Shown here in pieces: positions 7,441-57,998 of a DNA stretch of 64,000 nucleotides. This DNA is from Euglena gracilis (taxonomy: Eukaryota): positions 18,072,589 to 18,136,588 of the forward strand of contig CP154954.1 of NCBI GenBank assembly GCA_039621445.1, read 5' to 3'. Made by a program: the position numbers and the translations under genes. Numbering within the stretch: the first letter of the stretch is position 1; every line of letters starts with the position of its first letter. The notes under the pieces were generated by a model. The model saw only the letters and a program-made list of their open reading frames with translations. It was not told where the DNA came from and did not search any database.

Positions 7441-10175
7441 AGGGTCAGGGCGTCGCTTCACAAACCGCCTGGGGTTTGGGTTGGCTGCCGTCTGGCTGGT
7501 GGGTCGGGGGTGGGGCCTTCCAACGGAAGCGACATCCGGGCCAGGGCGGCCCACGCCTTGTCTGGCGGGTCGAGCAGCGGGTTGGCCGCCAGCAGCTGCC
7601 GCGCCTGCTGCGGGTCCACAGCAGCCCGCCGCGCCGGTGTTTGGGGTCCCAGAAAACGGGCTGCCTCCCAGAAAACGGGGCGGTTCCCCTGAATGGCACG
7701 CTGCTGCTACCCCCCCCCCCTGTCCCTTGGCCTGGTCCTTTTTACAACCCACGGGTGGAGGGTGGTGGGCGGACCACCACCCACTCACTTCTGAGGTAAT
7801 TTGGGGTCTTCTGTTTTGCTTTTTTGGCACTTTGCAACAAAAATCCAGGATTTATCCTTAAAATCGAGTTTAAATGTGTGCTTCACACCAGTACCTTAGT
7901 CCATAAAATGCACTATCCTGACAGAATTTATTGACCTTCTCAGATGTCTGCACAACACCTCCGCTTTGTGGATGTCTTCCACTCTGCTCTTGTCCCAAAA
8001 ATCCCTGTTGTTAAGGCTTCAAAATTTAAATGAGCTTTGGTCCACTTATGCAGTTGAAAACACAAAGCATTAGAATGATTGATGTGTGCAATTGCGCACA
8101 CCAACCACCCAAAAACACTGGGACTGTTTGTGGGGACAGAGTCCAGCACCACAGCGCCAATGAGCGATAACAGCAGCGCATCTCTATGGCATGCAGCACC
8201 TGGTGTGATGACATAACCCCTATCTGGCTATGTCACGCAGAAATGGAAATGGGGGGAGTGGGGGTTTCATTTTTTTCTTTGGTAAATTCGGTTCGGGGAG
8301 GTCAGTCCCAGCGCCTCACGACTCGGCGATGTGTTTCGGTGGGTCAAAAACACCAAATTTGCACCATTGCCCCCCAGGTGTCACCACTGGAAATTTGCGA
8401 AAGCCTGAGGGCCGGCGTGTCACAAGCAAGTCAAAAACCTGGACCCCAATTCAAATAAAAAATTCAAACAGTTTGAGTCCGTGTGTGTATTAGCGCACAC
8501 TGACACAAAAATGATTACCCGCCCCCCCCCCCTTGTCCAACGACCGGGTTCCTGCAACCCCCGACCGGGGGGAGGGGTGGGGGGGGGGGAGGGGGTCGTA
8601 CCACCCCCCAACCTGCAAACCCCCGAACGAGGCGGTGGTCGGAAGGGGCTCGTACTAGGGGCCAAAACAAAAACCAAAAGCCAAAAAAGGTGCAATTTCA
8701 TAACGGTGGAGGTTGCCACCGGCGCCTCTCAGCATGGAGGTCAGAACGGGCGGTATCCCGTGGTACAAAACACATTACGGGACAATGACACAAACACGGG
8801 AAAAAGCTGGTCGACAAGCACATGAGAGGTAAAAAATTTTTGTGGTCACCTGCAACCCCCGACCGGGGGGGGTGGTACCCCCCCAACCTGCAACCCCCGG
8901 CCAGGGGGTGGTCGGTATATGGGGGTGGTCGGTGGACAAGGGGGGGGGGGGCGGGTAAGAACGAGATCCGCTGCCAAAATACAACTTAGAATTGATTGCA
9001 TGGCTTCATTCAACGTTGATCCAATGGAGGTAAAATATGGACGATTTAACCAGGATTGCAAATGGTGACAGGATACTTCTGAATTGGAAGTCTGCGACGT
9101 GCTGGTGGCCGGCCACCGTAGCAGTGTACGCCTCCTCGTACCGGGCTGCAGACTGCAGCAGCGCCGTGCGGTCCACCTGTGTCCAGTGGTACGCCACCTG
9201 GCCAGAGGCAGGCCGGGGGCTTTCTGCTCGCACCAACCCACTGGGTTGCCAGCTGATGCAACGTGCAACGTTTGAAATATTGCACCAGAGTTGCGTCGAG
9301 GACTCCAGGATTGAATTTCAGGTCTAAAAACAGGACACTGACGAGGAGATCGTTGATTGAAGCTCAATTTCGGCGCTACCCTCAAATTTGATTCAGGGCA
9401 ATGGGAGACCCAAACTGCCAATTTGGAACCTCAGCCCCACTCACTAAACCCACAATGCATTGCTTCCTCCCTCGTCTATGTGCTGGGCGGTTCTCAGCAT
9501 CTTCTTTTGGAAGGCGAGTTTCAGGAAGCCCCGTTTTTCGCAAATTCTGCCACCTCCCCAGAAATTTTCAGCTGACAGATTGGACAGTCCCAGGGGCAAA
9601 TACCTCTCATGACAGGTTGGCTGGCATCGGGGACCCTGAAAATTTACGGCAGGTGGGGCCCTGACAGGTTCTCGCTAATGCCTGGAACGGACCGTTTGCA
9701 CAACGGTGGAAATGGTTTGGTTGCACTCAACAAATCTTTCTGAAGTCAAAGGTCATGGGTATGCTGAATACGTAAATCTAGGTGCCACTTATTGTATTGA
9801 AGGGGAAAAAAACGGCACCTTTGTGCAATTGCGCAAAAGAACAAGCCAACTACGTGTCAAGATGATGGGCTACCCAACCTGGGAGGGGTAAGATATTGCT
9901 CAAATACTTAGAGGTTGCAGAAACTCCTGAAGCGTGATCTGGGGGAACCGTGGTTTTGCCAGTCAGAAACAGGTCTGTCCCCGGCCGTGTGTGGGGCTGC
10001 ACAACTCCAGGCTTGTGCCCACAGTTTTGGCCAGGAACCACTGTTGCACCTTGAGACATGTTGGCCAACGGAAATGTCCGCCGTCGAACACCCACCCACT
10101 GAAACCATGCCCAAGAGCACAACCCTGTGGGAGAGAAGGTCGGCATTTGGGTGAATGGGGACTGGTGACAAATTG

Positions 10176-10225
<50 letters not shown>

Positions 10226-10265
10226 GCACACACACACGCACACGCACACGCACACGCACACGCAC

Positions 10266-10297
<32 letters not shown>

Positions 10298-13200
10298 GCA
10301 CACCCACCACCCACACCCACCCACCCACCCACCCACCCACACACACACGCACGCACGCACGCACACACACACACACACAAATGCCCAACGAATGGCCTTT
10401 TGAATTCCAGTATGACACTTCAAGGAAATTAAATTTTAAATGAAAATTTATATATATCTCTCTCTGAAAAGAATCTGATGGAAAGGTATGGTTAAGAGGT
10501 GTCTGCAGAAACAGTAGCTGCTGAGACAAACTCCAAATGAACATCCGATTGGGGGGAAAATACACTGTCCATTCCTCGGTTGGTGGTAGGGGGCAGTTAA
10601 ACTGCCCTCCCATACCCCGCAACCTTCAAACTAACCACTGCCTAGTCCCCTTCTGGGCGACCAACTAAAGACAAGACCTCCAAGCGAAGGAGAGAAAATG
10701 AGGACATCTAGGAACAAGGACCTCAACGTTAAACAAAATCTAAGGGAGCAAATGGCCGATAAAATCGGACGACATCAAGAAGGAATTGGTGTGATCTGGC
10801 ACCACTGGACCTTCAACCGTCTTCACAAAATGGCAAAGGCAATTTTTTCAACTTTTCAATTTTAATTTGGATTCTTTCCCTCCTGGACAGGACGTCGGCG
10901 GCTCTAGGCCGAAGGTCGGTCCTTCAAGGGTTAGTGTTAACAAAAAACACGTCCCACAAAGAACGTTCTGGCTGTTCTGGCTGGAGGAGCAGGTTCAACG
11001 TCACCTGAGAAAAATGATCCTTCAGGTGGCACGGACAAACAGACATAAAGTTTGTGGACAAAATTACAGCCACGCCAAATTTTTCGGTTTATGATAAACC
11101 GTAAACTTTGCGTGGCCATCACTCTGGCCCCTTCAAAATTGAATTGGGGTCTTTTCTAGGTTTTGGCCACTATATTGGAAGAAGTCGCTGGCGTGATGGT
11201 TTTGGGGTTTCAAGGTGAGGAAAATGAATGCATTCACATTGTTGCAAGTGCCAGGGAATTCCTTACAGACCCAGGGGGGAGGGTCCAGCTGGACAGCTGG
11301 AAGAAGGTGGCTGGATCCCCCTGGGGAGTGGGGGGCCCAAGAGGGGTCCTGGCGGCTGCCCGGCTGGAACCAGAAGACTGGCAAAAAAAAAGCACAAATC
11401 CAGCTGGGATGCATTTGTCACCCCAACATTTGGGGTGAACCCCCCTCCAAAAGACGCTCAAAAATGGCCATTTTGCCGTGATTTAAAAAGCTTTTGCGCT
11501 TCGCTTCGCCTTTTTTCTTCTTTTTCCCCCTTTATCGGTCCAGCCGGCTTTTTTGGGATTCGAAAACTTCATAACCCCCCCCCCCCCCCCCCCCCCCGGG
11601 TCCTCAGCCCATATGGGAGCTGCTTGCTGGAAAAAAATGGTGCACGTTGGCTGGACCTGCAGCACAGCTTAAGAAATTCCGTGATCTAGGCTCGTCAGCA
11701 GTCGATTACAATTCTTGGGTCAAACGCCCCCGTTGCAACGTTTGGATGACAAACCGAGCATCGCAATCCCCGATTGGCAGCTTGGCAGGTTTGTACATGA
11801 CTTTCGGGTGCTCCACATCCTCCATGTCCAGGCTGGCAGCCCCCGGAAGCTGCACTGCCTCCAGGCTGTGTTTCTCCATCATGGCTTCACTTTTAACACA
11901 CTGGACGTGGGTATTTGTCCCCACGACCAAACCCACCCACTCATTTTCTTGAAAACGCACACACCCACAACCCCCCAGTTGAAGCCCCGCATCACACAGA
12001 GTTTAAGTGAAGGTAGGGTCTCTGTGTGTTCCGCCTTGCACAGCACCTCGAACACCAGAAGAACCTCAATGACAGGGCCGAGTAACGTGAAAAATTTTGC
12101 CTGACATTGTTTCAACTGGGCTGAATTCAACCCAGGGCCCCTGTCAAACAATTTCTTACCGACCCTCCAGGGGAGGGGGAGCTTCTTCACTCATCCAAAA
12201 CCAGTCAGTAACTTTTTGTTGGAAAAGCAATCAGTCACTACCCCTTCCAAGGTTCTTTGAGAAATTCCCTGTAGCAGTCACCAGCCATGCAATTACTTAG
12301 TCATTTGGTGGGTGACTGGTTTTTTCTTCAGAATGACTGACTAGTTTTTTTGCACCAAACCCCCTGCCCTGGGGGGGGGCAAAGCCACTGAAGTGACCTG
12401 CTGCCGAATGTGCTGGGAAATTTTTTGTGGCTTTTTCAGTTTTTGGTCCATTTCCTTTTCATCCCAGAGTGGCTGATCCCCGGGGGATGCCCTTCGGCGC
12501 AGGTCCTCTGATGGCGGGCGGCGGTGCCCCCCCATCCATTCCATCGCCGGGCCCTGGGCTGCCTTGCCGGGCACTGTCACCCGCCCCAGCCGGCGGAAGT
12601 GGAAGTCCTCCGCACAGGCCTGGTACGTGGAACCGGAGACGCAGATGTACGTCCCCAGCAGGCTGCCTGTCTTGGAGCCCCCGCCTCGCCCTTGGGACAA
12701 AAACTTCTGAGGAAGCCAGAAAGCCAAATTTGGTTTCATCATTTTGATTTGGGTACTGACATTTTGTCCTGGGTCTATTGCCTTTGGTTGGTTCTGTTGG
12801 ATTAGACATGGGGGGGGCTTGGAATCCCTCCCCATTCATTGGGGAACTGAACCCCTGACAGCCTGAGGGGAACCCCCAACTGCATGACCATCATTGTTGT
12901 GCCTACGGGGAAAAATTGATGTTTCAAACACTTCAAACGATTCAAAAACACAAATAAAACAAAATAAAATGACATTGATATATTGAAGATTTCATGAAAT
13001 TTGGGAATGTGCGGCTGGTCCCCAGATAATTCTCAACCAGCCCCAAACGAATCGAAAGCTGGTGTCACAGTCAGTGCAACCCTCAAAAACCAATGACACA
13101 CTTCCTGACCCCCACAGCAATGTTTGTACTGCTTTTGGACATGAAGAAAGCCTGGGCCCAAACTTCTTGTTGAGCCCCTCCAGCCGGGAGGACAGATTGG

Positions 13201-15350
13201 AACGCAGCGCTTTCCTGAGAAATAACCACCGGATTCAAAAATATGCAAGAGGATTGGACATCTGCTAAGCATACAACACAAATAACTGTCTAGGGGAAAT
13301 CACTGCCTAACTGGCACACACCGTTGTTGGATTTTGTTTTCAGATCGGCCCAAAAGGTTGCCTAATTTTGGTTTCACTTCTGGAAAAGACGGGGGGGGGG
13401 GGGTAAATACGGTGAACAAAAAAGTCCGTTCGTTCGATTTGGAAAATGCAATCCCACATAGCACATGGCACATCCCCCCCCTGCAAAAAAAGAAACAAAA
13501 AACAAATCCAACCACTTTTGCAAGGAAACACAAATTAATTGCTTATGGCTGCTTTGATTTGACGCTTGTCCTTTGCCTCTTCTTGTGCGTTACTTGTATT
13601 TTTCTTCCAGGGCTTGCTTAAATTTGAATTCCACCTGTCCACAGGATCCACAGGATCCACAAAAGTTTAGGGGTTGAATGTGTCGCTGATGAAGAAACTC
13701 TCAAGCTTGGATGCAGGCACACCACATTCGTGGCAGAATTAAGCTTTTGTTTTGCACTTCTTTAACTGTGGATCTATCCCCACCTCCGACCTCCGAAATC
13801 GGCCAGGGAATTTGTTTCCAGGCCCATACCACTTGCCCCCCTCAAGCTCGCCAACATGGCTGAACTTCCTGGGGGGTCGATAATGACTCGGGGGCATTTC
13901 CACTTCAAAAAAAAAGTCAGATTTTTTTGGGAAAACCAATCACCCGCAGAGGTGTGCACTTGTTCTAGCATTGCAAACTCCTACCCTAAGGACTCCTGAG
14001 GACTCAAAGGATATGGTCGACGATGGTTGAGGACTCTGGGTAAGTATAAAGCGACACAGGAAACGAAAGTTCGATGAGTTTGTTTTTTGATCGCAAAGGG
14101 TATGAAAATTTGTGACACCTGAGTGTGCATTCCAAACCTAACAGAAAGTCACCAGTTCATCAAATTCCTCTTTGGAGGTGCATCACATATCAGGCTGTGT
14201 TTTTGTTGGGTGGGGATTCTTGGGAAATCCAACGTGACGGATCCCCCCCCCAAAAAAACCAGGCTTTGGGTCGCAATTTGTTAGGTGAGGTAATTCTGGG
14301 TTGGGAAGGAGCTGGCCAACCCCATCGCCGAGACAGGTGTAGCTGACGCGGTAGCTGCAGCCGGGCTCAGGACCGAGCCACCAGGTGTAAAAAGGGCTGG
14401 CAGACAACAAAATAGCTGGCACAGAACATGCGTTGCAAATTTCAAAAAAGGATTTCATCGAAGGGACATGCACCAACACAGGCAGAATGGAAGCCAAAAT
14501 CAAAATATCCATAAAATATCGACTGCATGCTCTGCAACACATGGGGCGTACAGAGGGTGGAGGACAGATGCCCCAGAGGCTACGTACTACGGAGGTGATT
14601 GGTCGAACGCGCAAACGTGCAAAGCAATACCTGTCCCTGCGCGACCCTGCCCGAAGTTGCCGACGAGGCACTCGCCGGTGTGGATGCCCGCGCGGAACTT
14701 CAGCACCGGCAGCCCGCGGGCCCGCCACGACTCGTGCAGCCCCATGACGCAGGCGTCAGGGGCCGGCAGACGGCCCACGGGGTAGGGCGGGGGTGCCAAC
14801 GAATGCCCACACACAGGGTCGTGTGTCGGTTCGCCTCGATCAGGGTCGGTTTTTAATGGAAATAACCACAAGGAAATACGGCTGAAAAAATCGCTTTTTT
14901 GGCAAAAACAAGTCCTCATCGGGGGAAAAAGTGTAAAGCGAAAAAATGTAAAAAAAATGTGTTTTTTAACTTAGTTTAATTCAACCCTCGTCGGCCGTTG
15001 TCGTCGGCCGTTGGGTGATCCTTTAAGGGTGGTCCTTAGTAATAAAAAAAAACATGTCCCATAGGGACCGCCGTGGTGTCGAAGAGAGGAGGTGAAATTT
15101 CTCTTTTTGTACTATCTCCCGAACATGTAAACCATTCTGGTTTCTGGATGGTTAAGCATGTGTTGGGATGACAACACAAAAATTGAGGGAGGAAAAAATT
15201 CAACATAAAAACGACATTAATGAGTAAAATGGGTCGGGCACAGGTGGGTGGGGCCGAATTCATCTCAAAATTCAACCTGGTACGCACGCACGCGCGCGCA
15301 CACACACCCACCCACCCACCCACCCACCCACCCACCCACCCACCCACCCT

Positions 15351-15383
<33 letters not shown>

Positions 15384-15410
15384 ACACACACACACACAAC
15401 ACGCATGCAT

Positions 15411-15448
<38 letters not shown>

Positions 15449-18400
15449 CACACACACACACACACTCACTCACTCACTCACACACACAGGGACGTGCCCT
15501 GCACATCTTGCATCGCCAGCGATGCAGCCACAGCGTCCTTCTCATGGTTGGGCAGTGCCTCCGGCGCATTCCACAGCGCCATGGCACAGCCCTGCAGTGG
15601 GACGCTCACATGCTCACATGTGGCCTTTGCAGCAATGGGGTTGTGTCGGGTTTCCCACAAAGTCACCCGCCGCAAAGTGCCAGGAAGAAATTTTCCTGGG
15701 CCTTTTCTCCCTTGAATTTCAGCCATTCCCAAAAGCAACATTAACTCCCCAACAGGATGGGAAAGACAATGTATTCATCAATCAGTACACATTGTGTGCG
15801 TACACATTGTGGATGTGTCCACATTGTGTGTGCATCGATGTGCATGAACAAATTAGGGGAGGGGGGTTGCAGAAAATGCTCTTCTCACAAGAGTGGCCTC
15901 CCACAACAAATGAACAAAAGCTTCCCGTTCCAATTCGTTTTCGTTCCACAGGACGTTTCGCAGACCACAGGCCACAGAAACGTCTGATGGCATAATAAAA
16001 TAATATATAATAATTTTTCTTCAATTAATTTCTTGTGGCTGAACAGAAGCATTAAAAAGGGGAAAAAAACATCGTTAAAGGGAAAAAAAAGCAAACAAGC
16101 AAGAAACAAAGATGCCCTACGCACAAATCTTTCCCTGCAAAAGCTGTTGAGCAGTCACCGATGCGTTTGTCGATTGTGCCGTGTGGACGGGGGCTTGTTT
16201 TGGCTGGGCTTCTCTTTGGAGGCAGTTGTGCCCAGACAGCAGTTCCGTTTGACTGGGGCCAGCTGGGGGGACTGGCAAAAGTTTGGCTGGACCCCTCCCA
16301 GGAAAAAAACAAAAAAAAACCGAAACCTTGAGGCCAGCACCCAAAAACAGCTGGGTGGGGACCCAACCAACAAAAAAAAAAATTGAACGACAGAGGCGAG
16401 CAAAAAAATCCAGCAAATGCGCAGCACCCATATCCAGCTGGGGGGACATTGACCCAACAGCTGCGGCCAAAATGTGAACGAAAACATGAAGACACCGTTC
16501 TCAAAATCAGGCTCTTGAAGCGCTTTGGCCATTTCCCCCAATTGTTCCCAGAGCTTCGCACCTTGGCACTGAGGTGTGACACAGCACCACCCAGCCCAAA
16601 CACTATCCCTCCCCAGAGATACACTTCCTGAAGAAAAATAAACCACACCGGAAACTCTCGGGGCGCATAACCCCCCATGACTACACTAACTGAATCTCCC
16701 CTGGCTGGTCCAACCGGTTGAAAGACACCCGACCAAGGTTTGGGTGGCCAAAACGCTGATGGGGACTGAGCGGCCCAGGGGGCTGCACATCGCCTCGAAG
16801 TACTCCGTGCACACCGCCACCAGCACGGCCGGGAATTCGGCCTCGCAGATGGCGGAGAAGCCCTCGATGTCCGCAAACATGACGGTCAGGGTCCTGGGGG
16901 CAGGCGTCGTCATATTGGTTCAATGAAACACTCATTGCTCATTGAAGCATTACTAGAGCATGACCAGAAACACCCAGACTCCCATAATGCCAATGCAACC
17001 TTCAGCGCCGGTCTTGCACTTGAGAGGTGGCTGGCGTGGGTTAGTTGCAGAATTGCGAATGGTGTGTTCAATAAGGGACTTCCTAAACGACCAGCCCCCT
17101 TGTATAACCACTGCCCCCCCTCCCCCGGGGAGGCCAGTAGATAGCTGCAGCCATTAAAACACTTTCAACACCATAACACCATGGACCGTTGTCAACGCCT
17201 GTTTGGGATACATTTCGTCGTTCGCCATTTTGCCAGCAATCAAAGCCAGCCTCCAAGCCTCTTGGATGATGAGTCACTGTTCAAACAGGACGGTGCAGAA
17301 CAACCCAATGACAACGTCCAGCCGAGAGGGTGGAAAGTTTGGGTTGGCTGGAAAAAAAGCCAATGGCTGAACCGCTGTGGGAAGGGGTTCAGCCATAAAT
17401 TATATTCCAGCCAACCCTAAAATTCTCCGGCCGTTGCATACTCCCCCCTGCTGCATTACAGCACCTTTTAGGAAATAGGAAGTGATTGTTTTTCAATGAA
17501 TTGCGCTTTGCCAGTTAGCTGGAAAATGTTTTTCATATGTGAGTGACACTGCGATTTATGGCTTTCAAGATTTTATTAAAACCTTTTGGGACATGTCGCT
17601 CACTTAAGTTGGAGGGGATTCCACCCTCGAGGTTCCAGCCAACCAGCAGTTTTTTCCCCCAGCCCCGGACCGTCCCTCCCCCCCATGCATGAGGCTAAAT
17701 TTTGTTCAACAGCCCTATGGGCCACTGCAAGGCTATGTAGTTTTTTTTTAAAAAAAATCTTTTTCCATTATGGGTGCCAAAAAAGGCCGAAAATTGTGCG
17801 AATTGCCCAGCTCATTTTTGGTTGAAAAACCAATTTGCATATCTGTTTTGATTTTTGGGCCTTTTTGCAGTTGCATGTCGTTGAATTAGCTGCCAAAAAA
17901 CACAGCTATGTTGCATTTTGGCCGCGCATGCCAAAATTCTGCGGAACCTACTGAAAAAAGAATGTGTATATGAATTATTTTGGCAGGAGAACTCGATGGG
18001 TAGAATTTTCCACTTGACTAGAGTGGCTCCCAGAAGAGCGATAGCCTCGCGAGGGTGAGAACGCTTTCTGTGGGTGGTGGGGGGGCTCCCCAATGCAGCA
18101 ATCCTGTGATTCAGCTCCGGGCTGCCCAGTACCTTCACCACCGCCTGGGGAACGAACTTCCCGAACGCCCGCAGCCCGCGCTCCATCTGGACGAAGGAGG
18201 CCTGGAAGCGGTGCAGCTCCTGGAACAGGGTGGGCTTCGTGGCGGTGGTCGCGAACTGCAACTGCGCGATGCGGTCCATTGGCGGCAGAGCCCCCGCCCA
18301 ATCCAACTGAATGAAACTGACTTTGAGGAACCCCCTTTTGGGGGCCCCATACGGGCCCGAAAACGGTCCGGAGGGGCCGGGGGTATGTGGGGTGTATACA

Positions 18401-21400
18401 GTGTACACAGGGGGTCCCCCATGGTTGGTTTGGGTCCCCGGGTGGGTCCGTGCAGTTCCCCATCGGTTTCGGGCATTTTTGGAAAAATCGATTTTTTGAC
18501 CCCTGTAAGGCGGTCACAGGCTGCACGGCGCTGAAAACGCAGTCCTCAAATTTGGGGTCCAACCCCCAGTTACACCCACCTACGTGTGCAGTCGCGACCC
18601 GGGACCCATGCCATCCAACGGAGGGACCCCCCTGTGGAGAGTTTCACTTCAGATCAGGTCGACCGACTGTCATATCCCGGGAAAAAATCTTTATTATTAT
18701 TTGTACCTTTAGTAGTGATACTACCACTGCTGCTGCTGCTGCTGCTGCTACTAATTTACTAAATTAGAAAAACACAAAAAAAAACGGTCATGTTGTTTCC
18801 TCCCCTTGCGCAGGGTATGGATGAGACCCTGCGCCCCCTTGCCAGGGTGTACAGCCGTGCCGCCAGCCAGAGGCCCACGCTGAGGGGCAGCACCACTGCG
18901 AGGGCGCTCACCACCCCCAGGATGGCGAACCCCGGCGGAGGGCTGCCGATGGTGACCAATTCAGAATAAACACCCTGCATCCCAGTCGATGGCATTTCCC
19001 CCCCCCCCGTTTTTTTAAGGTGGTGGTGGGGGGTGCCTGCCTGGGCAGGCACTCCAAGGCACTCCTGATCCGACTCCCCCCTTGGGGGGGGGGGGCACAC
19101 GGCCAAAAGTGCCCTAGCACAGACCCCGGCGCCTTCGCAAAAGAGGTGTTTGGACCTGGCAAACCTGTCTGGGGACGTGGTGGCCACCCCGGAGACATGA
19201 CCCGGGAAGGGGGGGGGGTCACTGAGCGGGACTTCATAAGCACAACTGGAATAAATATACTGGAAAAAATGTGCAAAAATCCTTTTCGGAAAATGACTGC
19301 GTTGACCACAAAAAGAAAAAAAAACACTCAAAAACACCCTTTTTGACAATTATTGGCCATCTTTTTTCAAAAAAAATGGTCACATATGCAGTGCTCTGCA
19401 CCAAAAACAATTCCATGTATCCCCACCAAAAATGGATTGGAAGCAAAACCCTGTGGGAGTGCTGCTGTGGATGAGCTGGGCCAAAATTGGGGCTGGCTGC
19501 ACCAGCCCCCCCCCCCCCGACAGGCTGAACGAGGAGGCCTGGTGCGGGGGCGGATTTCCCCACCTGGGAGGTGGGGTTCTGACTCCCCCCGCCCACCACA
19601 CCACAGACAGTGCAAGGAGGAATCCTTCGACACTGAAGGCATCCGAGGAAAATTTTGACCTCTGCGCCACAGAAACATGGGGAAGGGGGGGTTGGTGGGA
19701 CCCTGCCCCGCCATCCATAGGGTTTTGGGGGGTTCCTGGCGAACCCTGCCCACCGGGGCCGCAAAACAAAGGATGCACAGCCAGCATCAAAACAAGCAAA
19801 ACCCCACCAGTGCCTCGAAAATTCAAACAACCGACCATGGAGACTGAGAAAATCTGCCGGACACCGACACCGACGCATCACTGTCAACCCCCCGGCTGTG
19901 ACCCCCTTCTTGTCCGACATGGACTGGTCCACGTGCCCGTTGCTGGCGTCGATGCTGCCCATCACCGACGCCCGGTTCTTCAGCATAAGGACTGTGCACT
20001 GCAGGCTGTGGCCGGGCTGGGGATGAGTGGCTCCCAGCCAGGGTTCAAAGTAAGAACAAGGTGGGGGTCGACCCTTGCCCCTGCCTCGACATCTTCCGCT
20101 CCAAAGCGAAATAAAAACTTTTTTCCTTTCCTGGAGGTAAAAAGAAAATTAAAAATGGATTAATAATTAAAAAGTAAAAAATAAAAACTTTTTGGAGGAA
20201 AAATTTCAACTCACACAGGTGTCATTTTCTCCTTATCCCACCTCTCGCCTTAATCCCTTTCCGACCCCATCGCCTGCCCGAACACCAGTACTGTAGCCCG
20301 TTGCCACCCAATACTGCTGGCCAGAAAGCACCGCTTCATTTGTCGACTCAGGGATGGCTGTCCAGGACTGAGGGCACAGGAAGGCGCAACAATAATTCAA
20401 AACGAGAAACCAGTAGCCGAAAAAAATATTTTTGTGCACCAGAGATTTGGCTGCTATGCCAGCAGGTGTCAAATTGTTGCTGGCAAATGTATGCAGTTGC
20501 ATTTTTTTTTATTGCATGGCAGCTGATAGAACTCTGAAAGGTATTTTGAAAAATGGAAGCTTCTTCCTCTGGCCGGTATTTGCTGTACAACTGCTGGCAA
20601 GCCTCGGCAATCAGGGCATCATCGCTCTGCAGGCATGTCCACAGGCTGTACGCGCTGACGTTGATGGGGTTCAGCAGGGGGTTGATATACCGAGGGTCCA
20701 CGTCGCTGTGGCTGAAATACTTCCCGTGAGAGGACACGGCAACGGTGGCTCTCCAAAATATTTCAAGAGTTTCCCAGCTTGCTGCCAGTTTGCTCAGATG
20801 CTGCAAGCTCCATTTGATTTTCAACTGATGTGCTTCTCCACAGCGTTCGATCCACCAAAAGAATAATTTCATTCATTTTTGTGGCAAACAATTCACTCGA
20901 AGTGGCCACGCTCCCAGCAGAGCCCATATTTTCGCTTTATCCATTAGCAAAGATGATTTCATTCCAAGCATAAACTGCAAGAACCATCAACAGACATCTG
21001 ACAGGCTGAATACGCGTGGCGCTTCTGACACCACAAAAAAAATGAAAACCTGCAATCAGGATCACAAAGAAAGGCACAAACCAAAGACTTCCAAACCACC
21101 CCTGGGTGCTATCATGAAGCCATGGGGTTGGCGGAAAAAGAGAACCAGCCGGTCCAATGCAAGACCGCCCCGAAATCTGCCTGTGATACAACAACTCTTG
21201 AAAAGGCGTAGAAAAAGAAGCAAAGCTAGATAGATATAGGGAACAATGCACGGGGAAATGAAAAAAATATGAAATTGGGAGTTGCCTTCTGCTTTGGGTT
21301 CCACTCAGGTGTTAAAAACAAAAATATTGACAACTCGAGGTAAATGTATATATTATACCTGCATATATATTGTATTATATCATATTATCCTATCCTATCA

Positions 21401-24400
21401 TATCATAAATAGAGATGCACATTGTCTCTCTCTGTATATAAAAAAGAATTAAACAACCCATGGTGCTCCCAATGATGCCCTCCTTGTCCCAGCAAATGGG
21501 TTACAATATGTATTGCAAAAGCTTTTTTATGATTTTTTATCGAGTGGAAAAATTTTGGGCTGAAATTGGTCCTCCAAAAAAGTGTATTTTGAAATAACTC
21601 CCCCTTCCTCGAGGCAAGCGTTGACAGTTGCTGTGCCTGCCAACGGTGTCAAAAAAAAGAGAGAGAAACCCCCGAAGGGGGTTTTCCCTGCCGACCAAGC
21701 CAATTTTCATTGAAAATGGTCATTTTCAGGGGGGGGTGCCATAGCACTCCCCACCCCAGAACACCCCCCACCCTGGGGGGGGTCAAAAATGCCTGACCCT
21801 TGCTTGAAACTGGTGGAATTTGAGCAAAATGAGTGCAAAGTTGTATTGGGGAAAGGTTGGACTTTTGATCTGGGAGTTTGATTAAAAAATTTTCCCACCC
21901 AAGTATAAACCCCAAACATTAAACCTTCCTGAGGGGGCCTCCTCCCAAATATGAAAGGCGGGGGGATTTGCTGGATCCTAAATCCACAACAGATTTTTCT
22001 TACCAGGCTTCTGTCCACCAACCCAGGGGGAGGGTGCCTGTTCATGGGATGCCTGTACATAGCAGACACCCCCCCAGGGGGGCAGGGTCAGTGTTGGACC
22101 CCAATGCATACCAACCAAGCCAAGTTTCCAATGAAAATGGCCATTTTTAGGTCCCGGGGCCTTCAGTGACCGGGGTGTGCTACAGCAAAACCCACCCCAA
22201 AACCCGACCTGAAATGGCTTTAACCCCCTGCCTGCCCACAGCACCTCCGGGGGGGGGGGGTGCAACTTTCCTTAACAAGAAGCCCGTTTCTCACCCATTA
22301 TTGGCAGTTTTTTTTTTGGCCAATTTCGGACCAAATAAAAATAGAAATTTAGAAGATCTCAAAAAAAGAAGAGACAATTTCAATCAAAGACAATTTCCGG
22401 AAATCTGCACTCTTGTTGAGAAGTATTCTCGTTTGCCGTGTTTCCCATGTATTTTTCAAGGTTTGATGAAATTATTCTCTCAAAAAGTGTTGCAGACTCC
22501 TGACTCTGCCGTTTTCAGTCATATTTGGCATATTTGGGTCAAAGAATCATTTTTTCGAATTTCTGAAAAAAAGAGGGGAATGAGAGTAAACGTTGGCGCT
22601 GTGAAGAACAGTTTCTGGGACCCAAGACACCGCTCAGGTCGTTGTACAACCAACACTCTTTCTGCATTCTGCATTGGCGTTGCATATTTTCCATAAATTT
22701 CTCTTTTCATCATCGTTTCTGTTGATCAAAGAAAGGCAAAAAGAAATACATGTCAATCCAAGATCTTACTTTTATGGTCATGGGCATGAGATTTTAAATT
22801 TACATGCAGACATTATTTGCCTTCTTTTCGAACGAACAGATGATGAGAGAGAAACTCATGGGAAATGTGCGGCAGGATGCAGAAAGAGAGTATGATGAAC
22901 TGTTAAAATGGTGCACAGACGGCATGCACACCCACCACAACCAAGATTTCTCCGAGATGTCACTCATGGTCCCTCCGCCTTGCAGGTCACCAGCATTAGT
23001 TGCATGTCTATCCCCAGGTGTGCTAATATTTATTTGATTTATTTGTTTATTAAATTTGTTCAGTTTCAATTATAAAAAGTTTCTCCTATTTTGGATTTTT
23101 AATGTTGACATCTTTTATATATATTTTATGCAATTTTTATTTCCTTTTGTTTATCAACATTTTTTCTTCATTTTTTTCATTTTCATTTATTTTGATTTTG
23201 ATTTTCCTTTTTCAAAAAATCTTTCATTCCGTTCAATGTATTCAAGGGTGACAACTTCCCAGGGTGAGGAGGTTTTGTGCATGTATACCACACAGGGGCG
23301 AATACATGTTCAAATCCGGTTAGGGAGAATAAAAGCACCAGAAAAGAGAAAACAATAAACAAACAATAGCCCATCAAAAAAATGCTAAAAATCAAAATAG
23401 TTTTAAGAATCCTAAAATTCTAAAAATAGAGAGAACAGAGTGAATGAAAAGAACAAATGTTTGTCCTTGCGAGAAAGCGACCTCCCTCGAGGCTTTCAGG
23501 ACGTGCTTGACCCTGCGGAAACCCGTCCAACTGGCTCCGCAATTCATCGCTGAGGGTTGCTGCCGCTATATTGATTGTTAACAGTATCCACGTCCCGTTC
23601 TGGGCGGGAAACCCGCCTCACGAGGTCGCCTGCAGCAGCCGATGAGGCCACATTGTAACCAAGGGTCGAAAAATACGCACTACACATTCTACTGTGGGGC
23701 ACAACCTCAACAAAAACAACAACCAAAATGTATGCTGATCCGTGTAGCTGCACCGAAAATAATCAATCAACCAGACATTGCAGGAGATCCCCTGGTCTCT
23801 GCCGACGGACTAACGCCACCTGCCCAGTGAAACGGTTGAATGCCATCGTCGTGAGCCACCCATTTACCCATTTTGGCACTTTGGAGGCCGGCCCCACGCT
23901 GTCATCGGACCAATAACACTCACAGTGACCATTGAAACTGCTCAACCCCCCAAATGAGACCACAGAATACCCCCCCCCCCAAACATAAGACCCCCAAAAT
24001 AAGACCCCCCCAAAAAAGATTCCCCTCCCAACTTTCAGCAGAAATCCTACAAATAAACACCAAAAAGGCAGCACCTTTAATTCACTCCGTCTCAATTATG
24101 ATGCCCGCTTGTCTGTCCGGTGCTCAAGCAGATGGGGGGGGACTTCAGCAGCCAACCTTGCACCTAAGCAAGATTCTGGTCCAATTGCAAAAATTCACAA
24201 TATTCTATTCTGTTGATATTCCAGGATCCCGGTTGTTGCCGCTCATTGCTGGTTACACACCAGCCCAGCCCTCCAGCCCTCCAGTTATGCGCAACCAGAG
24301 AAAGGTCAATTTTAGTGTTTTTTGGCCCTCCACAACCTGGGTTTAACCCCCAAAATGAGAAATGACCCGAAAATACAAAAAACATCAGATCCTTCCACCC

Positions 24401-25697
24401 TGCATTTCCTGCGTGGGCAACTGGAACCACCAGGTGATGTCGGTGCAATTTGAAGTCAGTCAAGAAAAGAATGCCCTCTTGTTGGGGATTTATTTGACAA
24501 AGAATTTCAAATTTCCCTCCCCCCCTCCAATAGTGTTACCCCCAGATATCTTTCGAAGTCTCATAGGACCCAAAATACACCCAAAACCCCACTTTGGGGT
24601 CATTTATTGTACTTTCTCATGAAACTTGGCATTTTTGGAGGCCAGATGATCCAGAAAAAGGTGTACATGGCCCCCCAAAAATTGGTGCATTGAACCTCCC
24701 CCCCCCAATGACACCCTGAGCCTTTTTTTGTCTTTCTGGGGGGACATTCTTTTGGACTTTGCTGAAAATTTTGGCAGCCTTCCCTCGGGAGGGTCCAAAA
24801 TAGGTCCAAAAGAAATCTTTCACGATGAACAAAATTGTTCCAAAAAATGCCAGCACTGGATGAGGAGGTATGCTGACTTTCACAGAAGAAATTTACTTTT
24901 TAGGAAGTGAATCAAAATCAAAAAAAATCTGCCTCGAATGGTGAGTTCAGAGTGTGGGCATCTGGATGGGGCGTTCCTGTCTGCATTGGGCTGCATAACA
25001 CGCCAGGAACTGACGGTGAATTTTGCAGTGGACCATTTCAGATCAGCTTATCAAAAGTGAATTCCAAGTCTTTTCCCTCTTGAAAGATTTCCGGCAAGGG
25101 CCTTCAGGGCACGGCCGGTCGAAATAGGCAGCAGGTGCAGTTTGGTTTGAAAGCAGACGCACGGGCTTGCCTGTGATCTGGTCAACCTGCGAGATGTTGG
25201 CTTGGGGGCCCTCTTCTGTCGCAGTCCATGCCCCACAATTAAAGTTTGTTCAAGCTGGGAAAATGGTGGTGAATTGGGAATCACAGGCCAGAAGTGAAGA
25301 CAACGAGGATGAGCAGGCGCATCACACATTTCAAATAAAAAAAACAGTGTGTTGTTATCATCAGAGGATGTGAAACCTTAAATGCAATGCATCCATCCAT
25401 CCAGCAAAAAAAGAAAGCAGAAATATTAGAGAGTCCCCAGCTCAGGGTGGACACCTTCTCGTTGCGGGCCATCATCAATGGGGTGCTGTACAGTGTGTGG
25501 GTCCCATAGGTGTTGTTGAGGTCATAGAAGAGTGCAACCCACGTTACCCAGAAGGTGGGGATGAAGAAACTGGGAGGGCAGGGGCGGCATATGAACATGT
25601 CGAAAAGACTGAAAAGGCCCTCACTCACTCGACGAATGAAATGCAAGTTGCGAGTCGAGCAGCCTAAAGGCCATTGCTACGTAACCCCCCCCAAAAA

Positions 25698-25745
<48 letters not shown>

Positions 25746-28700
25746 AAAGCCCCCCCCAGCTCGACATTTGGGTGGGATTTCAAAACTCTCAAGAAAGCTT
25801 TATAATTGAACGGGGGCCTCTGCGAACTCTCACTTCCTTCAACTCCACTCAAATACCAATATTACACCAAAGTTCCTCCCAGTTTGCACCTCCCAGTTTT
25901 CCCCGAGATCCGCAATCCTTGCCAAAATCCTTTCATCTTGCAAAAAATGGACACACATGGGGTTTCCAGATTCATTGTGGTTCCCTCAGCAATTGTATTT
26001 AACGGATGGATGGATGTGTGGTTGGATAATTTTGTTGGTGGATTTGTGCTTTGGGGTGAAGGGAGCACAGGACATGCGCTGTGTCTTCCTCCTCAAACGA
26101 GTCTAAGCCAGGTGGCGACCTGATGTCTTTAAAAGACACTGGATTTTTGCTTTGGCCAAACGGCGGCCAAAAGGCTGGGCTCGAGCAGGGAATGAAAACG
26201 GAAAAAAAACACATCTTTTTTGTTGTGTGGGGATGGGCGATTTTTCAAGGATTCCAGAAATCTTTCTTCCTTGATGTCAACCTGTTTTAACCAAGAAATT
26301 CTCGAGCTTTCTGTCCATTTTACTGGTTGAATTTGCCAGTGTTTTTTACCTTCAGGACCTGTCCTTGGTGGCATAGGTTCCAAGGGAAATTATTTCATGC
26401 CATTTTATCATTTTTCCCACATAATTTGCCAAAATGTGAGATGAACCTGATATCTTTCTGAATACCCCCCCCCCATGGAAAGCCCCCAGAGGGTTTGATT
26501 TTGCCACCAAATATAAAATCCCTCCCTCAACACAAAACCACCTTGAGGGTGCCATTCAGGGCAAAACATAATTTTTTTGGGTCGAGAGAAGCCAAATGGT
26601 TGTTTCTTTTCTGAAAACCAGAAGACTCTGCCAAGCCGCAAAGATGGAGGGCGTTTTGGCACCCCTGGTCCTCGGTGGGATCCAGGAAACACCCGATCAG
26701 GGCCACCTGGGAGAAGACGGGGTGGCCCTTCATCATGGTGAAGGTCTGGCCAGTGAAGGGGGCCGCTGGCACCCCTGCCCTTGCCACCACCAAAAATCTT
26801 GGAAACGATACTTTTGTCACGTTGGCGGAAACCTGTCCATCAATACTTGGCCGCTCCGAATCTATCCACCATATCCGGAGGGTTCTTTCCCTGCATTTTC
26901 CCCACCCCGATCCTTTTTTTTTACGCCCAATGTCGACTCCGTGATAAGGAACAAAGAACAGGGCATGCGTGAATGGATAGGAACTCCACACCGACCCAAA
27001 GGGACTGATTTCGAACTAAAGATGCGTTTGAAGATAAAATGCAAATTGCATACGTTGTGTAAACTTTGCTATTTTTAAAAAAAAATCACAATACATGGAA
27101 TAAACATCACAATTTCTGGACACAAAATTCAAAACATACTTAGATGTCATCGGCTGCCCCAGTACCATGGGACGAAAGCAAGGTCTTTCTTAATTGGGAA
27201 ATTTGGGTACAAATGCCTCCGAAACACCCCAGGTGCAGCATGTCTTTTTGCAGAATGCCCAACATCTGCTTCATCAAAGGAGTACGTCGAGGGACGTTTT
27301 TGGTCGAGTGAAACCAAATTCCACACCATAACATACACACACATGCATGTACATATGGTTCCCAATTTGATTTTGAAAAATCGTTGGTGCTCTTGCCCAA
27401 TTGCAAAAACAGTTTGAAAAGCTGTCAATTTAAACATTTGTGTGCTCAGGCATCCAAATTAAAATCGTTGAAGCGTTTGGACAATCGTGCAAATGTTTCA
27501 TTGAAATGTTGCACTTGTGCAATTGTCCAAATGCATCATTGGAATGAAGCACTTGCACAATTGTGCAAATGCTCCATTCAAACTTGTGCAACGGTGCAAA
27601 TGTCTAAACAGATTAAAACCTTTTATTGAAAAAAAGCAAATTGACCTGCCTTTTGGGCCCAAACTTGGGCATTTGAGCCTGTGAGAAACCATTTCTGACA
27701 CCAATGGGCTCAAAAAAACGCCCGTGAAAGGCCTAAACCCCAGAAAAAATGAGTTGAAAAATGCTCTTCATCCTGGTTTTCAGAAATGAAATCAGCATGT
27801 TGGCTGTGAATATGTGTATTTGACAAATTTCAAACCTTGGCGTACGTGGAGGGGGTTGGAGAAACACCCTGACATGCTGCCTTCCACCATCGAGTTGTAT
27901 ATATATGCATGTTCCACAACATATTGGACGTCGTGGACGCTGCGTCTCCACTCTGCTCTTTTTTCCAAAATCGATAAAGGCTTCAGAAAATAAAGCATTT
28001 GCACAATGCAAGAAAAGAGGTATGTCGCTAAACTCCCACAGAACTGAACTGGTGGCAGTCCTACTGCATTGTTTTCCCCTGCCATTTGTGGGTTGATGCC
28101 AGACTTCTGCTTCGGGGTTTTCAGTAAACTCCCCCAAATAACCCCCCCGGGTATTATTTGGTATTATTCTTTCGCCCGAAGTCATGGCCCGAGGGGGGGG
28201 GTATTATTTGGGGGGGGGGCATTTTTTTCCCAAAATTTTCGAAATTTTTCGAAGTCCCATAAAACCCAAAATAGCACCCAAAACCCTCCTTTGGTGTCAT
28301 TTTTTGCACTTTCTTGTGAAATTTACCATTTTTTGGAGGTCAGATGAGCCAGAAAAATTGATTTTTTTTCGTAATTTGTTGTCAGAATATTGTGATTTTT
28401 ACCTACATTTTCAAGTAAAAATCCGGGCCTTTGGCCCGAAACCGGGGGGGGGGGGTATTATTTCGGCGGCCGAAGTCGGACCCCAAGGGGGGGGGGGGTT
28501 TATTTGGGAGGAATTATTGGGGGGTGGTATTATTTGGGGGGGTTTACCCTGGGGGGCTCGACTACGCCAATCCATTTGGGGGGTCTGCTAGCAGGGATAA
28601 TTATTGAATATTGTTCCCCAATGACCGGTGTGAAGCGGCAAAAATTTTTGAAACCCCCAAAACCTGCCAGAAACCTGCCCATTTTGGCTTTTTGGGTTTT

Positions 28701-41854: not shown

Positions 41855-42129
41855 AAAATAATAAAATCCCTTGTGTCTCCAAGTCGTTTTGGGGGGCAAG
41901 TCCCTTGTGTTTCCAAGTTGTTTTGGGGGGCAAATCCCTTGTGTTGTTCAACCGATTGAGGGCCCCAAAATAATAAAATCCCTTGTGTCTCCAAGTCGTT
42001 TTGGGGGGCAAGTCCCTGGTGTTTCCAAGTCGTTTTGGGGGGCAAATTGTTGTCCAACTGATCGAGGGCCCAAAAATAATAAAACCCCTTGTGTCTCCAA
42101 GTCGTTTTGGGGGGCAAATCCCTTGTGTT

Positions 42130-46247: not shown

Positions 46248-46291
46248 CCAGACGCTGAGGATCAATGGGGAGAAGCCCCGTGCCTGGCAAC

Positions 46292-46602
46292 GAGGGGTAG
46301 ATTTATCCTGGGGGGGGGTAGTGGGGGTCGACCATGGTCGCTTTCGGTCGCCCTCGGTCGCCCTCGGTCGTGGGGGGGGGGTCGATGTCAAAATGTGCGC
46401 TACATGCAAAATTTGCGCAACATACAAGCAAAAGGCGTTACACACACAAGGGATTTTGTTATTTTAGGGCCCTGGAACAGTTGCCTACGCCGCTACATGG
46501 CAAAAAAGGTGGGAAAAAAATCAGTAGGAATCACCCATAGCGACCGAGAGCGACCATGGTCGACCCCCACTACCCCCCCCCCCCAGGCCAGATCCGGGAG
46601 CC
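46292..46602. mobile_element. Short MULE-like MITE of the same family, opposite orientation
   Basis: 9-bp TSD CCTGGCAAC; same terminal motifs. Confidence 0.82.
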
Positions 46603-48473: not shown

Positions 48474-49078
48474 GATGAATGAAACTGAAAATAAGAGCCA
48501 TGTAAAAAGTGCCGAGCCTTTCCTTTTTTTTCATCCATCGCATTCTGAGGCATTTTTTTTTCTTCAGGACACACGATTAGATGTGCAGTGGTGGAGCGAA
48601 CCGAATCCACCCACCAGTGGCACAGCGTTTTGTCCTTTGGCCGCCTTGGAGCTGGGGTACCACCCCCCCCCCCTTTATTGTCCCACCGACCTGCCCCCGG
48701 GAGGCCCGACTGGACAATAAAGGGGGGGGGACAATAAAGGGGTACCAAAGGAATTTCATTGGCCGGGCCAAAAAAACCCCCCGTCGGCCGGGGCCCAGGG
48801 ACAATAAAGGGGGGGGGACAATAAAGGGGGGGGGGGGTGGTATCTGGCTAGCCGCGGCTGGCCGCGGCTGGCTGGCTGGCAAAAAAAAGGAGGAGGTCTG
48901 GCCAGCCATGGCCAGCCACGGCTGGCTGGGGCGATTTAGAGGAGGAGGAGGTCTGGCTGGATATAGTTTTGAGGAACTGAAAGAGGAGGAGGAGGTCTGG
49001 CTGGCCGCGATGAGAAATTGGCTGAAGGGTAAGCCCCGCGATCCGGGCAAGTCCTGATTCAGGGTTTTTTCTGCACAA

Positions 49079-56200: not shown

Positions 56201-57213
56201 ACCAGCCGGATACCGAAACCACCCAAACGCAGAGGCAGGGCAGCCTGGGCCCATTGTGTGTCGGTGACAGAGCAATCCAAAATCTGCTGGAAAGTAGCCC
56301 GGAGGCATCCGTCCGCACGGGCCAGCAAGTGGGGAAAGGGGAGGCAGTGAGCACTACGCACAAAGAACTGAACTTAGAGGCGTCGAAACAGAAGTGGAGT
56401 AAGGACAGTTGGACTTGGGGGTCTTGCACGGAGCCCAGCAGTGCTGTTGCTTGCTCATGCTTGGAGATACCTCTAATTGCTGGCGAACAAAGGACACATC
56501 CGAAGGGTGATGGATCGGGACGCCCAACACCGAGACCCGGAGTCGAGGGTGAAGGGAACGACAAAGGCCCCACGCAAGACGGAATCATCATGCAGAGAGG
56601 GGATATGCCGAACCCCTGGGCCCCACACGGTAGTCTTGGTTAGATTCAGAGAACACCCCAGGCGGCCCAGGCCGATCTGGAGGTGTGCTAGGGCGCGATC
56701 AGCAGTTGGGACGTCTGACAAGATGGACCCGTCGTCCAAGTACCAGAAGGAATTGCCCCGTCCTGGTGCCGAAAGCAGGGTGTCGTGAATGGCTAGCGAG
56801 AACAGGAGAGGCACGAGGGGTGCTCCCTGCTGCCCACCTTCCGTGCTCTAGATCTCGTTGTCCCCAACGAACAAACGGGATGGCTGCAGGGAAAGGCGGC
56901 ACCAGTGCAGCAAGTGCGGGGCCTGGCGCTTGACGGCATCAATGATGGCAGCCCGCTTTACAGAATTGAAGGCATTCCGTATGTCGACCTGGAGTACACC
57001 CAGTCAGGGTCGTCCCTGCGCTCAGATGTTGCAGCGAGATCCCAATTTGCTCGCAGGCGCTTTTGCCTCCAAAGGCGGACTGTAACGGGCGCAGGTTGGC
57101 GCCCACGTCCTCTGTCTTGGGAAGAGCCATGAGGCATTTTTCCACAAAGGTCTCCCCGACGGCAACCGGGCGTACCCCGTCGTCCTTCTTCCGCAAAGGG
57201 AAGAGGTTGGCCG

Positions 57214-57998
57214 CAGGGGTGTAGAAGTAATTTTTTCTCGGGGGGGGGGGCGAGATCCTCGACAAGACTGAAAATATCCATTTTTCCCTCGCCGCCCGAA
57301 GGGCGGCGAAATGGTGGTGCTTTTTTGAAAGATGGCATTGAATGTTACAAAAAAAATGTGGCAATTTTTGGCATTATGACACTGATCCATCACAACTTGG
57401 AAGCTTTTAAGTCACCCGAAGGGCGGCAAAACGGTAGTGCTTTTTTGAAAGATGGCATTGAATGTTACAAAAAAAGCCGCCATTTTTACATTATGCCACC
57501 AATCCATCACAATTTGGAAGAGCCGCCCAACAAGCGGCAAGAGTGACGCCTTTTTGTGTTTCAGGATTTGTGTCTTAGGATTTGCGTGGAACAAAAAAAA
57601 TCTATTGCCGCCCGAAGGGCGGCTGACGGTAATGCAATTTTCCAAAACCTTCCCCAAAAAGACTTGTCAACTTGCCAAACTTGTCAACAAAAATTGTGTG
57701 CTCTTGAAAAAAAAAGAGCTTTGGAAGCGAAGTCAAGATGCATGTTTTCCTGTTTGCCGAGATTTTCGCCCCCTCCGACCCATGAATTCAGGACGTCTTT
57801 GGCCGCACAAAGGGCGGCGAGACGGTAGCGATGTCTAACAGCAAAAACACCCTAAAGTTCAATGAAAAGTTGAATTCTCGGTGTGAGAAATTGAAAAAAC
57901 CACAAACAATGTGAATCACACACTTTTCAAAAAAAATTTCTTCCCAAAATGTCGGGGGGGGCGGCCGCCCCCCCCGACCCCCCACTTCTACACCTATG
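57214..57998. mobile_element. hAT-type non-autonomous element in the minus-strand CRE RT region
   Basis: TIR CAGGGGTGTAGAA/TTCTACACCTATG; perfect 8-bp TSD GTTGGCCG. Confidence 0.88.

Follow-up and report, generated by a model that had tools for sequence, protein, structure and literature searches.

Nonconventional (NC) introns of an adenylate cyclase gene in Euglena gracilis obey the published NC splicing code, and one of them is bounded by a perfect 8-bp direct repeat set exactly where removal by that code leaves a single copy behind. The gene lies in a stretch of 64,000 nucleotides (assembly GCA_039621445.1, contig CP154954.1, positions 18,072,589 to 18,136,588 of the forward strand), which we call the window and from whose first letter all coordinates below are counted. 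The same window holds at least seven non-autonomous terminal inverted repeat (TIR) elements, of several families, with 8-bp target site duplications (TSDs), some of the duplications imperfect. By taking out 3 nt, a helix-bounded core and 5 (to 6) nt, the code does what would be needed to delete a TIR element together with one copy of its 8-bp TSD. The reading that we favor, and to which we would give an even chance, is that NC introns arise from TIR elements with 8-bp TSDs and that the splicing ruler is matched to the TSD.

The cyclase introns and the NC splicing code

On the minus strand, the adenylate cyclase gene (class III cyclase domain) spans 32303..7374, about 25 kb, and 28 introns divide it into 29 exons. 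The entry point was a minus-strand cyclase motif, from which a 49-aa exon peptide (16773-16919, minus strand) was taken as protein query; 27 of 38 candidates matched at E<=0.001, all of them with PF00211 and nearly all EG_transcript_* entries (Euglena gracilis, EukProt). The top match, EG_transcript_1461 (P0001, 813 aa), aligns at ~100% identity in 29 collinear blocks along 32303..7374. For each intron, all junction positions reconstituting this protein were enumerated. The protein was rebuilt with 0 mismatches in 22 of the 28 junction windows, and every one of the 28 introns is missing from the transcript-derived protein. Resolution is poor at introns 17 (6 mismatches) and 18 (2 mismatches), because exon 18 of the window differs from the transcript.

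Reads were mapped on 7301-27300 from two RNA-seq runs (X21 and X22), a probable RNA contig set (X15) and a DNA contig set (X1). Introns 5-10 have RNA joints at exactly the predicted coordinates in X21, X22 and X15 (6 among the 15 joints listed of 69), each with 12-24 read start places in RNA, and these joints are not seen in X1. Introns 11-27 are supported by the protein alignment, with RNA joints only as far as they stand among the same 15 listed of 69. Around exon 18 (15972-16638, the exon itself near 16147-16199) the window reads ..HGTIDKRIGDC and the transcript NIVQHNGTIDKFIGDC; the bin 15972-16638 has 0 RNA reads, and 34 (X21) and 29 (X22) loose-end reads continue from 16782 with transcript sequence. 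Relative to the expressed copy, the one in the window may be a divergent allele or paralog with poor expression.

At none of the 28 introns do the protein-compatible junctions include a GT/GC-AG option. The geometry is best seen in the summed spacer S, counted from the junctions to a complementary CDG/CH'G pair, a quantity unaffected by junction sliding: S=8 is found in 13 of the 28 introns, and each other value from 0 to 20 in 0-3 of them. Once variant ends are counted (CAA/TTG in introns 3 and 9, CAC/GTG in intron 4, a bulged CAG/GTG in intron 8) and the poorly resolved intron 17 is dropped, S=8 holds in 16 introns, with S=9 in three, S=10 in two and S=7 in one. The original prediction, made from the letters of this stretch, had placed 3+5 spacing in about 15 introns, which agrees with these 16; the pair of core ends that it gives as CAT/GTG we read as CAC/GTG.

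The main text of Nomura et al. (2025; PMC12501133) sets out an NC splicing code established by mutagenesis. A 5' spacer of 3 nt is obligatory; at the 3' side the spacer measures 5 nt, with 6 tolerated and 4, 7 and 8 poor or failing; one substitution in CAG or CTG suffices to abolish splicing; and the end pair CGG..CTG was shown to splice. The full code, 5'-N3CDG-/-CH'GN5-6|R, is satisfied by 15 of the 28 cyclase introns, the remaining 13 having variant or unclear ends, as compared with 61.2% of the NC introns reported there for E. agilis. The likeness to those euglenid introns extends to the non-GT-AG borders, the helix that pairs the ends, the spacers of 3 and 5-6 nt, and the CAG/CTG, CGG/CCG and CGG/CTG ends. 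Thus, the introns of the window obey the published code (3 nt, a helix bounded by CDG..CH'G, 5-6 nt, then a purine), and a geometry of 3 nt, paired core and 5 nt is real and already established. Introns with such ends are listed here, apart from intron 28.

7617..9107, minus strand: intron 27, CAG..CTG, spacers 3+5
10027..11775, minus strand: intron 25, CGG..CTG, spacers 3+5
12068..12559, minus strand: intron 23, CAG..CTG, spacers 3+5
12654..13157, minus strand: intron 22, CAG..CTG, spacers 3+5; L8/R8 match 5/8
13199..14317, minus strand: intron 21, CAG..CTG, spacers 3+6
14363..14652, minus strand: intron 20, CAG..CTG, spacers 3+5
16199..16781, minus strand: intron 17, CTG..CAG, spacers 3+5; junction uncertain (exon 18 diverges from transcript)
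16896..17204, minus strand: intron 16, CAG..CTG, spacers 3+5
17242..18127, minus strand: intron 15, CAG..CTG, spacers 3+5
18281..18834, minus strand: intron 14, CAG..CTG, spacers 3+5
18931..19897, minus strand: intron 13, CGG..CCG, spacers 3+5
20008..20283, minus strand: intron 12, CGG..CCG, spacers 3+5
23883..25120, minus strand: intron 7, CGG..CCG, spacers 3+6; RNA joint seen
30073..31615, minus strand: intron 2, CAG..CTG, spacers 3+5

An intron bounded by an 8-bp direct repeat

Intron 28 and its direct repeat consist of the following parts.

7440..7541, minus strand: intron 28 (102 nt), code-compatible junction GCC + CGG..CTG + ACCCTG, followed by G
7539..7546, minus strand: upstream copy of the 8-bp direct repeat CCCTGGCC, 5 nt exon and 3 nt intron
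7445..7538, minus strand: intron 28 core (94 nt), CGGATGTCGCTTC..GAAGCGACGCCCTGA, with an internal 9-bp stem and ends pairing CGG/CTG
7437..7444, minus strand: downstream copy of CCCTGGCC, 5 nt intron and 3 nt exon

The repeat is perfect (8/8) and extendable on neither side; its left copy abuts CGG, and its right copy follows CTG and one extra A. Code-directed removal of 3+94+5=102 nt leaves exactly one copy of CCCTGGCC, and intron 28 therefore has the structure that had been predicted. By our own estimate, such a repeat is expected by chance at ~0.3^8 per intron and register, or ~0.005 over 28 introns and 3 registers. At six listed places in the core there are 0 RNA reads, with 7-12 reads per run (X21, X22) in the flanks, and the core is present in a contig of the DNA set X1 with 6 differences in 94 nt. 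The arithmetic of the original prediction, that removal by the code (PMC12501133) equals an element plus one 8-bp TSD, is sound, and intron 28 is the single case of it in the window.

A joint at 7407>7539 (skipping 131 nt, side 24), which the RNA runs share with one contig of X1, was first taken as a DNA copy lacking intron 28. It was dropped as evidence: its sides are 24-nt islands conserved among cyclase paralogs (PDKAWAALA and PWDGVFHF), and the joint may represent a paralog, with or without an intron of its own.

On the reading that we favor, a young NC intron would begin when a TIR element with chance CDG..CH'G ends inserts into an exon, making an 8-bp TSD. The helix-measuring NC splicing machinery would then remove the element and 8 nt, leaving no scar, and only elements with the right terminal triplets would qualify as introns. 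The 3+5 ruler and the 8-bp TSD would be matched by selection, not by accident. Older introns would have lost the repeat because 8 of the 16 positions lie in intron sequence that is under no constraint. That NC introns are frequently gained is reported in the main text of Milanowski et al. (2014; PMC3935182).

A repeat of the same length has been published. Milanowski et al. (2016; PMC4770533) describe in their main text a gapC intron (intron 4) that a single E. agilis strain possesses; its direct repeats are of eight nucleotides, exceeding in length those of all other introns they analysed, and the authors ascribe them to double-strand-break repair. That assignment is one of the points in favor of a rival account, which we regard as somewhat unlikely, namely that the agreement is a coincidence: 3+5 would be a structural property of the NC splicing enzyme, unconnected with transposition, the elements would be ordinary transposons with 8-bp TSDs, and the 8-nt repeats would be fingerprints of double-strand-break repair. 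With TSD lengths spanning roughly 2-11 bp, agreement at 8 has no very low prior probability. Against coincidence stands the fact that two independent young or repeat-bearing introns, intron 28 and the gapC intron (PMC4770533), have exactly 8 nt, which an 8-bp TSD predicts; break repair predicts no fixed length, and its products would vary. Moreover, the repeat of intron 28 is in exact register for scarless splicing by the code, and code-compatible elements with TIR and TSD exist outside exons.

TIR elements in the window

The elements are listed below; none is assigned a strand.

5034-5914: seventh TIR element, 881 bp, family C; TIR 14/16, TSD ACCCTGAC/ACCATGAC 7/8, ends CAG..CTG
22004-22286: TIR element, 283 bp, family C, in intron 9; TSD 7/8, weak TIR 9/16, ends CAG..CCG on the plus strand
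34180-34564: TIR element, 385 bp; TSD CGTCAAGG 8/8, ends CAT..ATG; fails the splicing code
42130-42800: TIR element, 671 bp, family A; TSD CTTGTGTT 8/8, ends CAG..TTG; within a satellite
44265-45453: TIR element, 1189 bp, family B; TSD 7/8, ends CAG..ATG
45796-46247: TIR element, 452 bp; TSD CCAGACGC 8/8, ends CAC..ATG
57214-57998: TIR element, 785 bp, family B; TSD GTTGGCCG 8/8, ends CAG..ATG; inside a reverse-transcriptase-like frame

Over the seven, the TSD is 8/8 in four and 7/8 in three. Six of them had been named beforehand as having 8-bp TSDs; all six are real and their terminal triplets are as listed then, with the correction that two (44265 and 22004) reach only 7/8. Elsewhere in the satellite array, element 42130 is missing and its site holds a single CTTGTGTT, as 11 alignments across it show. 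Elements 44265 and 57214 are homologous over their length (family B), a truncated relative of element 42130 lies at 61693 (family A), and the TIR start CAGGCTT is common to 5034 and 22004 (family C). By the empty site and the homologous copies, these are real multi-copy mobile elements, not chance matches. The TIRs start with CAGGGTTGACG.. in family A, CAGNGGTGTAGAA.. in family B and CAGGCTTYT.. in family C. Long TIRs, subterminal repeats and ends unlike those of the introns mark families A and B.

The two members of family C are the ones compatible with the code. Element 5034-5914 came from a scan for CDG..CH'G-ended pairs with flanking repeats of at least 7/8; the scan scored 16 times in the window and 0-8 times in each of 20 shuffled versions. 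The CGGCTGGC/CGGCTAGC satellite accounts for nine of these hits, and a long stem and non-satellite flanks are combined only in 5034-5914; by our own estimate, ~0.01 chance TIR and TSD pairs of such quality are expected. This element satisfies both the splicing code and the purine rule in both orientations. Element 22004-22286 reads CGG..CTG on the transcribed minus strand and satisfies the code and the purine rule in that orientation. As to the coding context of 5034-5914, its flank has no homologue, with a sub-threshold Calcipressin match only. Restoration of open reading frames (ORFs) across the empty sites of the elements was uninformative, as long random ORFs occur in all frames, and a scan for exact TSDs with TIRs by TSD length was swamped by G-runs and satellites and is unusable as a length spectrum.

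Three observations concern the surroundings of individual elements. Contigs of X1 skip or replace 21709-22189/22222, a stretch that takes in the left part of element 22004-22286, one of them with 36 other letters; this variation at 21708-22223 is structural variation at the element and not clean excision. The tandem satellite that hosts element 42130 (38700-43100, units of ~112 bp, ..CCCTTGTGTTTCCAAGTCGTTTTGGGGGGCAAAT..) yields long spurious ORFs. A second frame resembling a reverse transcriptase (..KKDDGVRPVAVGETF.., ~57000-58300, minus strand) is apparently interrupted by element 57214.

Superfamily of the elements

The original prediction had called these elements hAT. Ends of the CAG type together with an 8-bp TSD make up the classic hAT combination, and the elements are indeed hAT-like in TSD length and in their CA.. 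ends. Among 40 ORFs of the window scanned against Pfam, no transposase domain was found, the only matches being RVT_1 (49026-51062) and the sub-threshold Calcipressin; the hAT label therefore depends only on TSD length and CA.. ends, and the superfamily assignment is a putative one made from sequence features. The hAT terminal motif YARNG fits 4 of the 14 ends (42130 left and right, 44265 left and 57214 left), the others reading CATAG, CATTG, CACAG, CAGGC or CGGGC, and the hAT target pattern nTnnnnAn fits 1 of the 7 TSD pairs.

Whether the elements are hAT is a question separate from how probable the proposed origin of the introns is. A transposon origin could be right and the superfamily a different one (Merlin, P-like, an undescribed euglenozoan family, or several superfamilies, all duplicating 8 bp), which we consider unlikely. 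The two tallies and the domain scan are in its favor, and so is the documentation of Merlin elements with 8-bp TSDs in E. gracilis (PMC8101967), because of which an 8-bp TSD is not specific to hAT. On the other side, Merlin has an 8-9-bp TSD and TIRs ending in 5'-GG (PMC8101967); the seven elements fit in TSD length, yet all 14 of their ends start with C, and the classic hAT pairing described above likewise argues against a different superfamily.

An 878-bp element at 62604-63481 is closer to that description. It has perfect 11-nt TIRs starting GGTACTTGTCT, with GGAGGGGGG flanking it on both sides, and its interior contains three head-to-head palindromes of degenerate telomere-like (TTAGGG)n/(CCCTAA)n repeats. 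It is Merlin-like by the traits given in PMC8101967 (GG ends, 9-bp flank), the TSD being uncertain owing to a G-run.

Weighing an origin of the introns from such elements

A number of results weigh against the derivation of NC introns from 8-bp-TSD elements. In the 16 S=8 introns, the 8-mers predicted to be equal agree at 39 of 128 positions, as against a permutation null of 39.6 (P=0.58), and shifted registers of the same comparison give 26-41 matches; the excess of 8-bp junction identity for which the original prediction had called is absent from these introns. The contiguous junction repeat has a mean of 1.5 nt versus a null of 1.09 (P=0.036; unresolved introns 17 and 18 left out), and intron 28 alone carries the signal. 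Nor did the anticipated homology between intron cores and elements appear within the window: blastn of the cores against its TIR elements gave no similarity, and the similarity of intron ends to element ends is within chance (best pair P=0.41), the top-5 mean (P=0.043) being attributable to the shared CAGG start. Blastn of the cores against the ends of other introns gave no match, and there is no multi-copy intron family within the 64-kb window. A candidate end homology between intron 22 and family C was rejected, as its P rose from 0.0175 with 3 nt held fixed to 0.13 with 4 nt and 0.35 with 5 nt; the match, which involved both intron ends, vanishes once the common CAGG(C) start is held fixed.

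Intron 28 itself contributes to this side of the ledger. Beyond CGG/CTG the ends of its core form no terminal inverted repeat, and the 9-bp stem is set in from them by 4 nt at the 5' end and 6 nt at the 3' end. At 95% identity or more the core is about single-copy in X1 (one contig, depth 149.8, the yardstick being eight listed X1 pieces at 148-216) and is therefore not assignable to any transposon family. The elements contribute as well. Five of the six named ones fail the code in both orientations (CAT..ATG, CAG..TTG, CAG..ATG twice and CAC..ATG). Since single substitutions in CAG/CTG abolish splicing (PMC12501133) and five of six elements are off the code, the claim that any exonic hAT insertion would be a ready-made intron fails; one of the six, 22004 on the minus strand with CGG..CTG, is compatible. 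The missing transposase domain and the sharing of 8-bp TSDs with Merlin belong on the same side. For a mere coincidence of 3+5 with the TSD, the lack of a TSD remnant in the 16 S=8 introns, the lack of intron-element homology, the rejection of most element ends by the code and the bare ends of the intron 28 core are all points in favor.

The observation from which the original prediction started is confirmed and its interpretation partly supported: one intron of the window, one published intron and two code-compatible elements back it, and it is unsupported for the bulk of the introns and for the named elements. A link of the introns to the hAT family or to the nearby transposons is not shown.

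The direction could also be reversed, or the spread could occur at the RNA level. An excised circular RNA would reinsert, either by reverse splicing or by reverse transcription and integration at a staggered break, and some TIR families that look like miniature inverted-repeat transposable elements, or MITEs, would be mobilised former introns and not what the introns came from. NC introns are released as full-length circles, according to the main text of a review (PMC11282704); the family C elements have perfect intron-type ends, and the core of intron 28 resembles an intron and not a MITE. Families A and B, by contrast, look like typical DNA transposons in their long TIRs, subterminal repeats and non-intron ends, and an RNA route predicts no fixed 8-bp duplication. 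We hold this to be very improbable.

Relation to known systems

An MITE-like origin of NC introns was put forward by Milanowski et al. (2014; PMC3935182), and the review cited above (PMC11282704) treats junction repeats as TSD-like and reads CAG/CTG at intron ends as TIRs. The main texts of PMC3935182, PMC4770533 and PMC11282704 share with our account the inverted-repeat and TSD reading, the ongoing gain and the gapC 8-nt repeat; they name no superfamily, TSD length or co-resident element families, and no euglenid transposons were known in 2014. To that hypothesis the window adds real elements with 8-bp TSDs, two of them with intron-type ends, and a second intron with an 8-nt repeat. The Discussion of Nomura et al. 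(PMC12501133) already suggests that the machinery may mitigate transposon insertions. Its main text makes no mention of TSD length, hAT or the equation of 3+5 with a TSD; 84.4% of E. agilis introns are "slidable" there, so that junction repeats are abundant, and these were excluded from that study, although they are the class that would carry TSDs. Full-text searches, covering main texts, found no link of NC introns to hAT, an 8-bp TSD or the 3+5 sum, and the supplements of PMC4770533 and PMC12501133 may bear on it; "hAT", "TSD" and "target site dup" have 0 occurrences in the main text of PMC12501133, and "hAT" has 0 in that of PMC11282704. Hence, the literature already contains the MITE origin, the repeats resembling TSDs and the notion of tolerance; the link of 3+5 to 8 is not in it as far as these searches reach, and the interpretation sharpens a known hypothesis into a testable form.

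Outside the euglenids, the closest parallels are introners and maize Ds. In the introners of Micromonas and Aureococcus, reportedly described by Huff et al. in 2016, a DNA transposon lands in an exon, and the element plus one TSD copy is spliced out with the frame restored. There, as proposed here, the TSD helps to define the splice boundary. Introners are spliceosomal and form high-copy families of similar sequence, whereas the route considered here is non-spliceosomal and helix-measured, with no multi-copy intron family in the window; many introns sharing one element sequence, the hallmark of introners, are not found within its 64 kb. Introners with TIR and TSD also occur in dinoflagellates and Amoebophrya, according to the main text of the review (PMC11282704).

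For maize Ds, an exonic insertion is said to have created a new intron (Giroux and colleagues, 1994). Ds is a non-autonomous hAT element with an 8-bp TSD that is removed from the transcript, as in the proposed Euglena route. Its removal uses cryptic spliceosomal sites and is usually imprecise, whereas the Euglena route would be exact by construction.

Other features of the window

High-copy dispersed repeats are nested in introns 27, 13/14 and 7 (7968-9301, 17973-19306 and 23976-25309). Summed DNA contig depth there is 2.6e4-2.8e5, a factor of 100 to more than 1000 above eight listed X1 pieces (148-216), and one such repeat is common to 24545-24659, 28160-28544 and 1782-2126 within the window. 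Long (GT/GC)n-type microsatellites at 10170-10388 (intron 25) and 15277-15495 (intron 19) were omitted from read mapping as repeats. The RVT_1 domain (E=1.7e-09) lies in a 678-aa open frame at 49026-51062 on the plus strand. Two similar palindromic units of ~200 bp, at 46334-46557 and 58212-58413, are built on GGTCGACCATGGTCGCT(C/T)TCGGTCG.. arms.

Implications

The origin of euglenid NC introns and the reason for their asymmetric 3- and 5-nt borders are long-standing questions. Equating 3+5 with an 8-bp TSD turns a vague "MITE-like origin" into a quantitative prediction in three parts: young introns should have repeats of exactly 8 nt in a fixed register; introns should come only from 8-bp-TSD elements with CDG..CH'G ends; and duplications of 7 or 9 bp should not be repaired. 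In its strongest form, which we offer tentatively and as somewhat less probable than the transposon origin itself, NC splicing would be a "precise excision" system at the RNA level, tuned to one class of DNA transposons, with a 3+5 ruler equal to the 8-bp TSD, so that exon insertions of CDG..CH'G elements are erased scarlessly. If true, this would account for the share of nonconventional introns in Euglena (about 70%) and for the continuing appearance of new ones; intron 28 and the gapC intron would be cases caught in the act, and family C (5034 and 22004) would be a still-mobile source. Euglenid NC introns would then be a non-spliceosomal counterpart of introners, and through their splicing the host would render one class of transposons harmless at the level of RNA.

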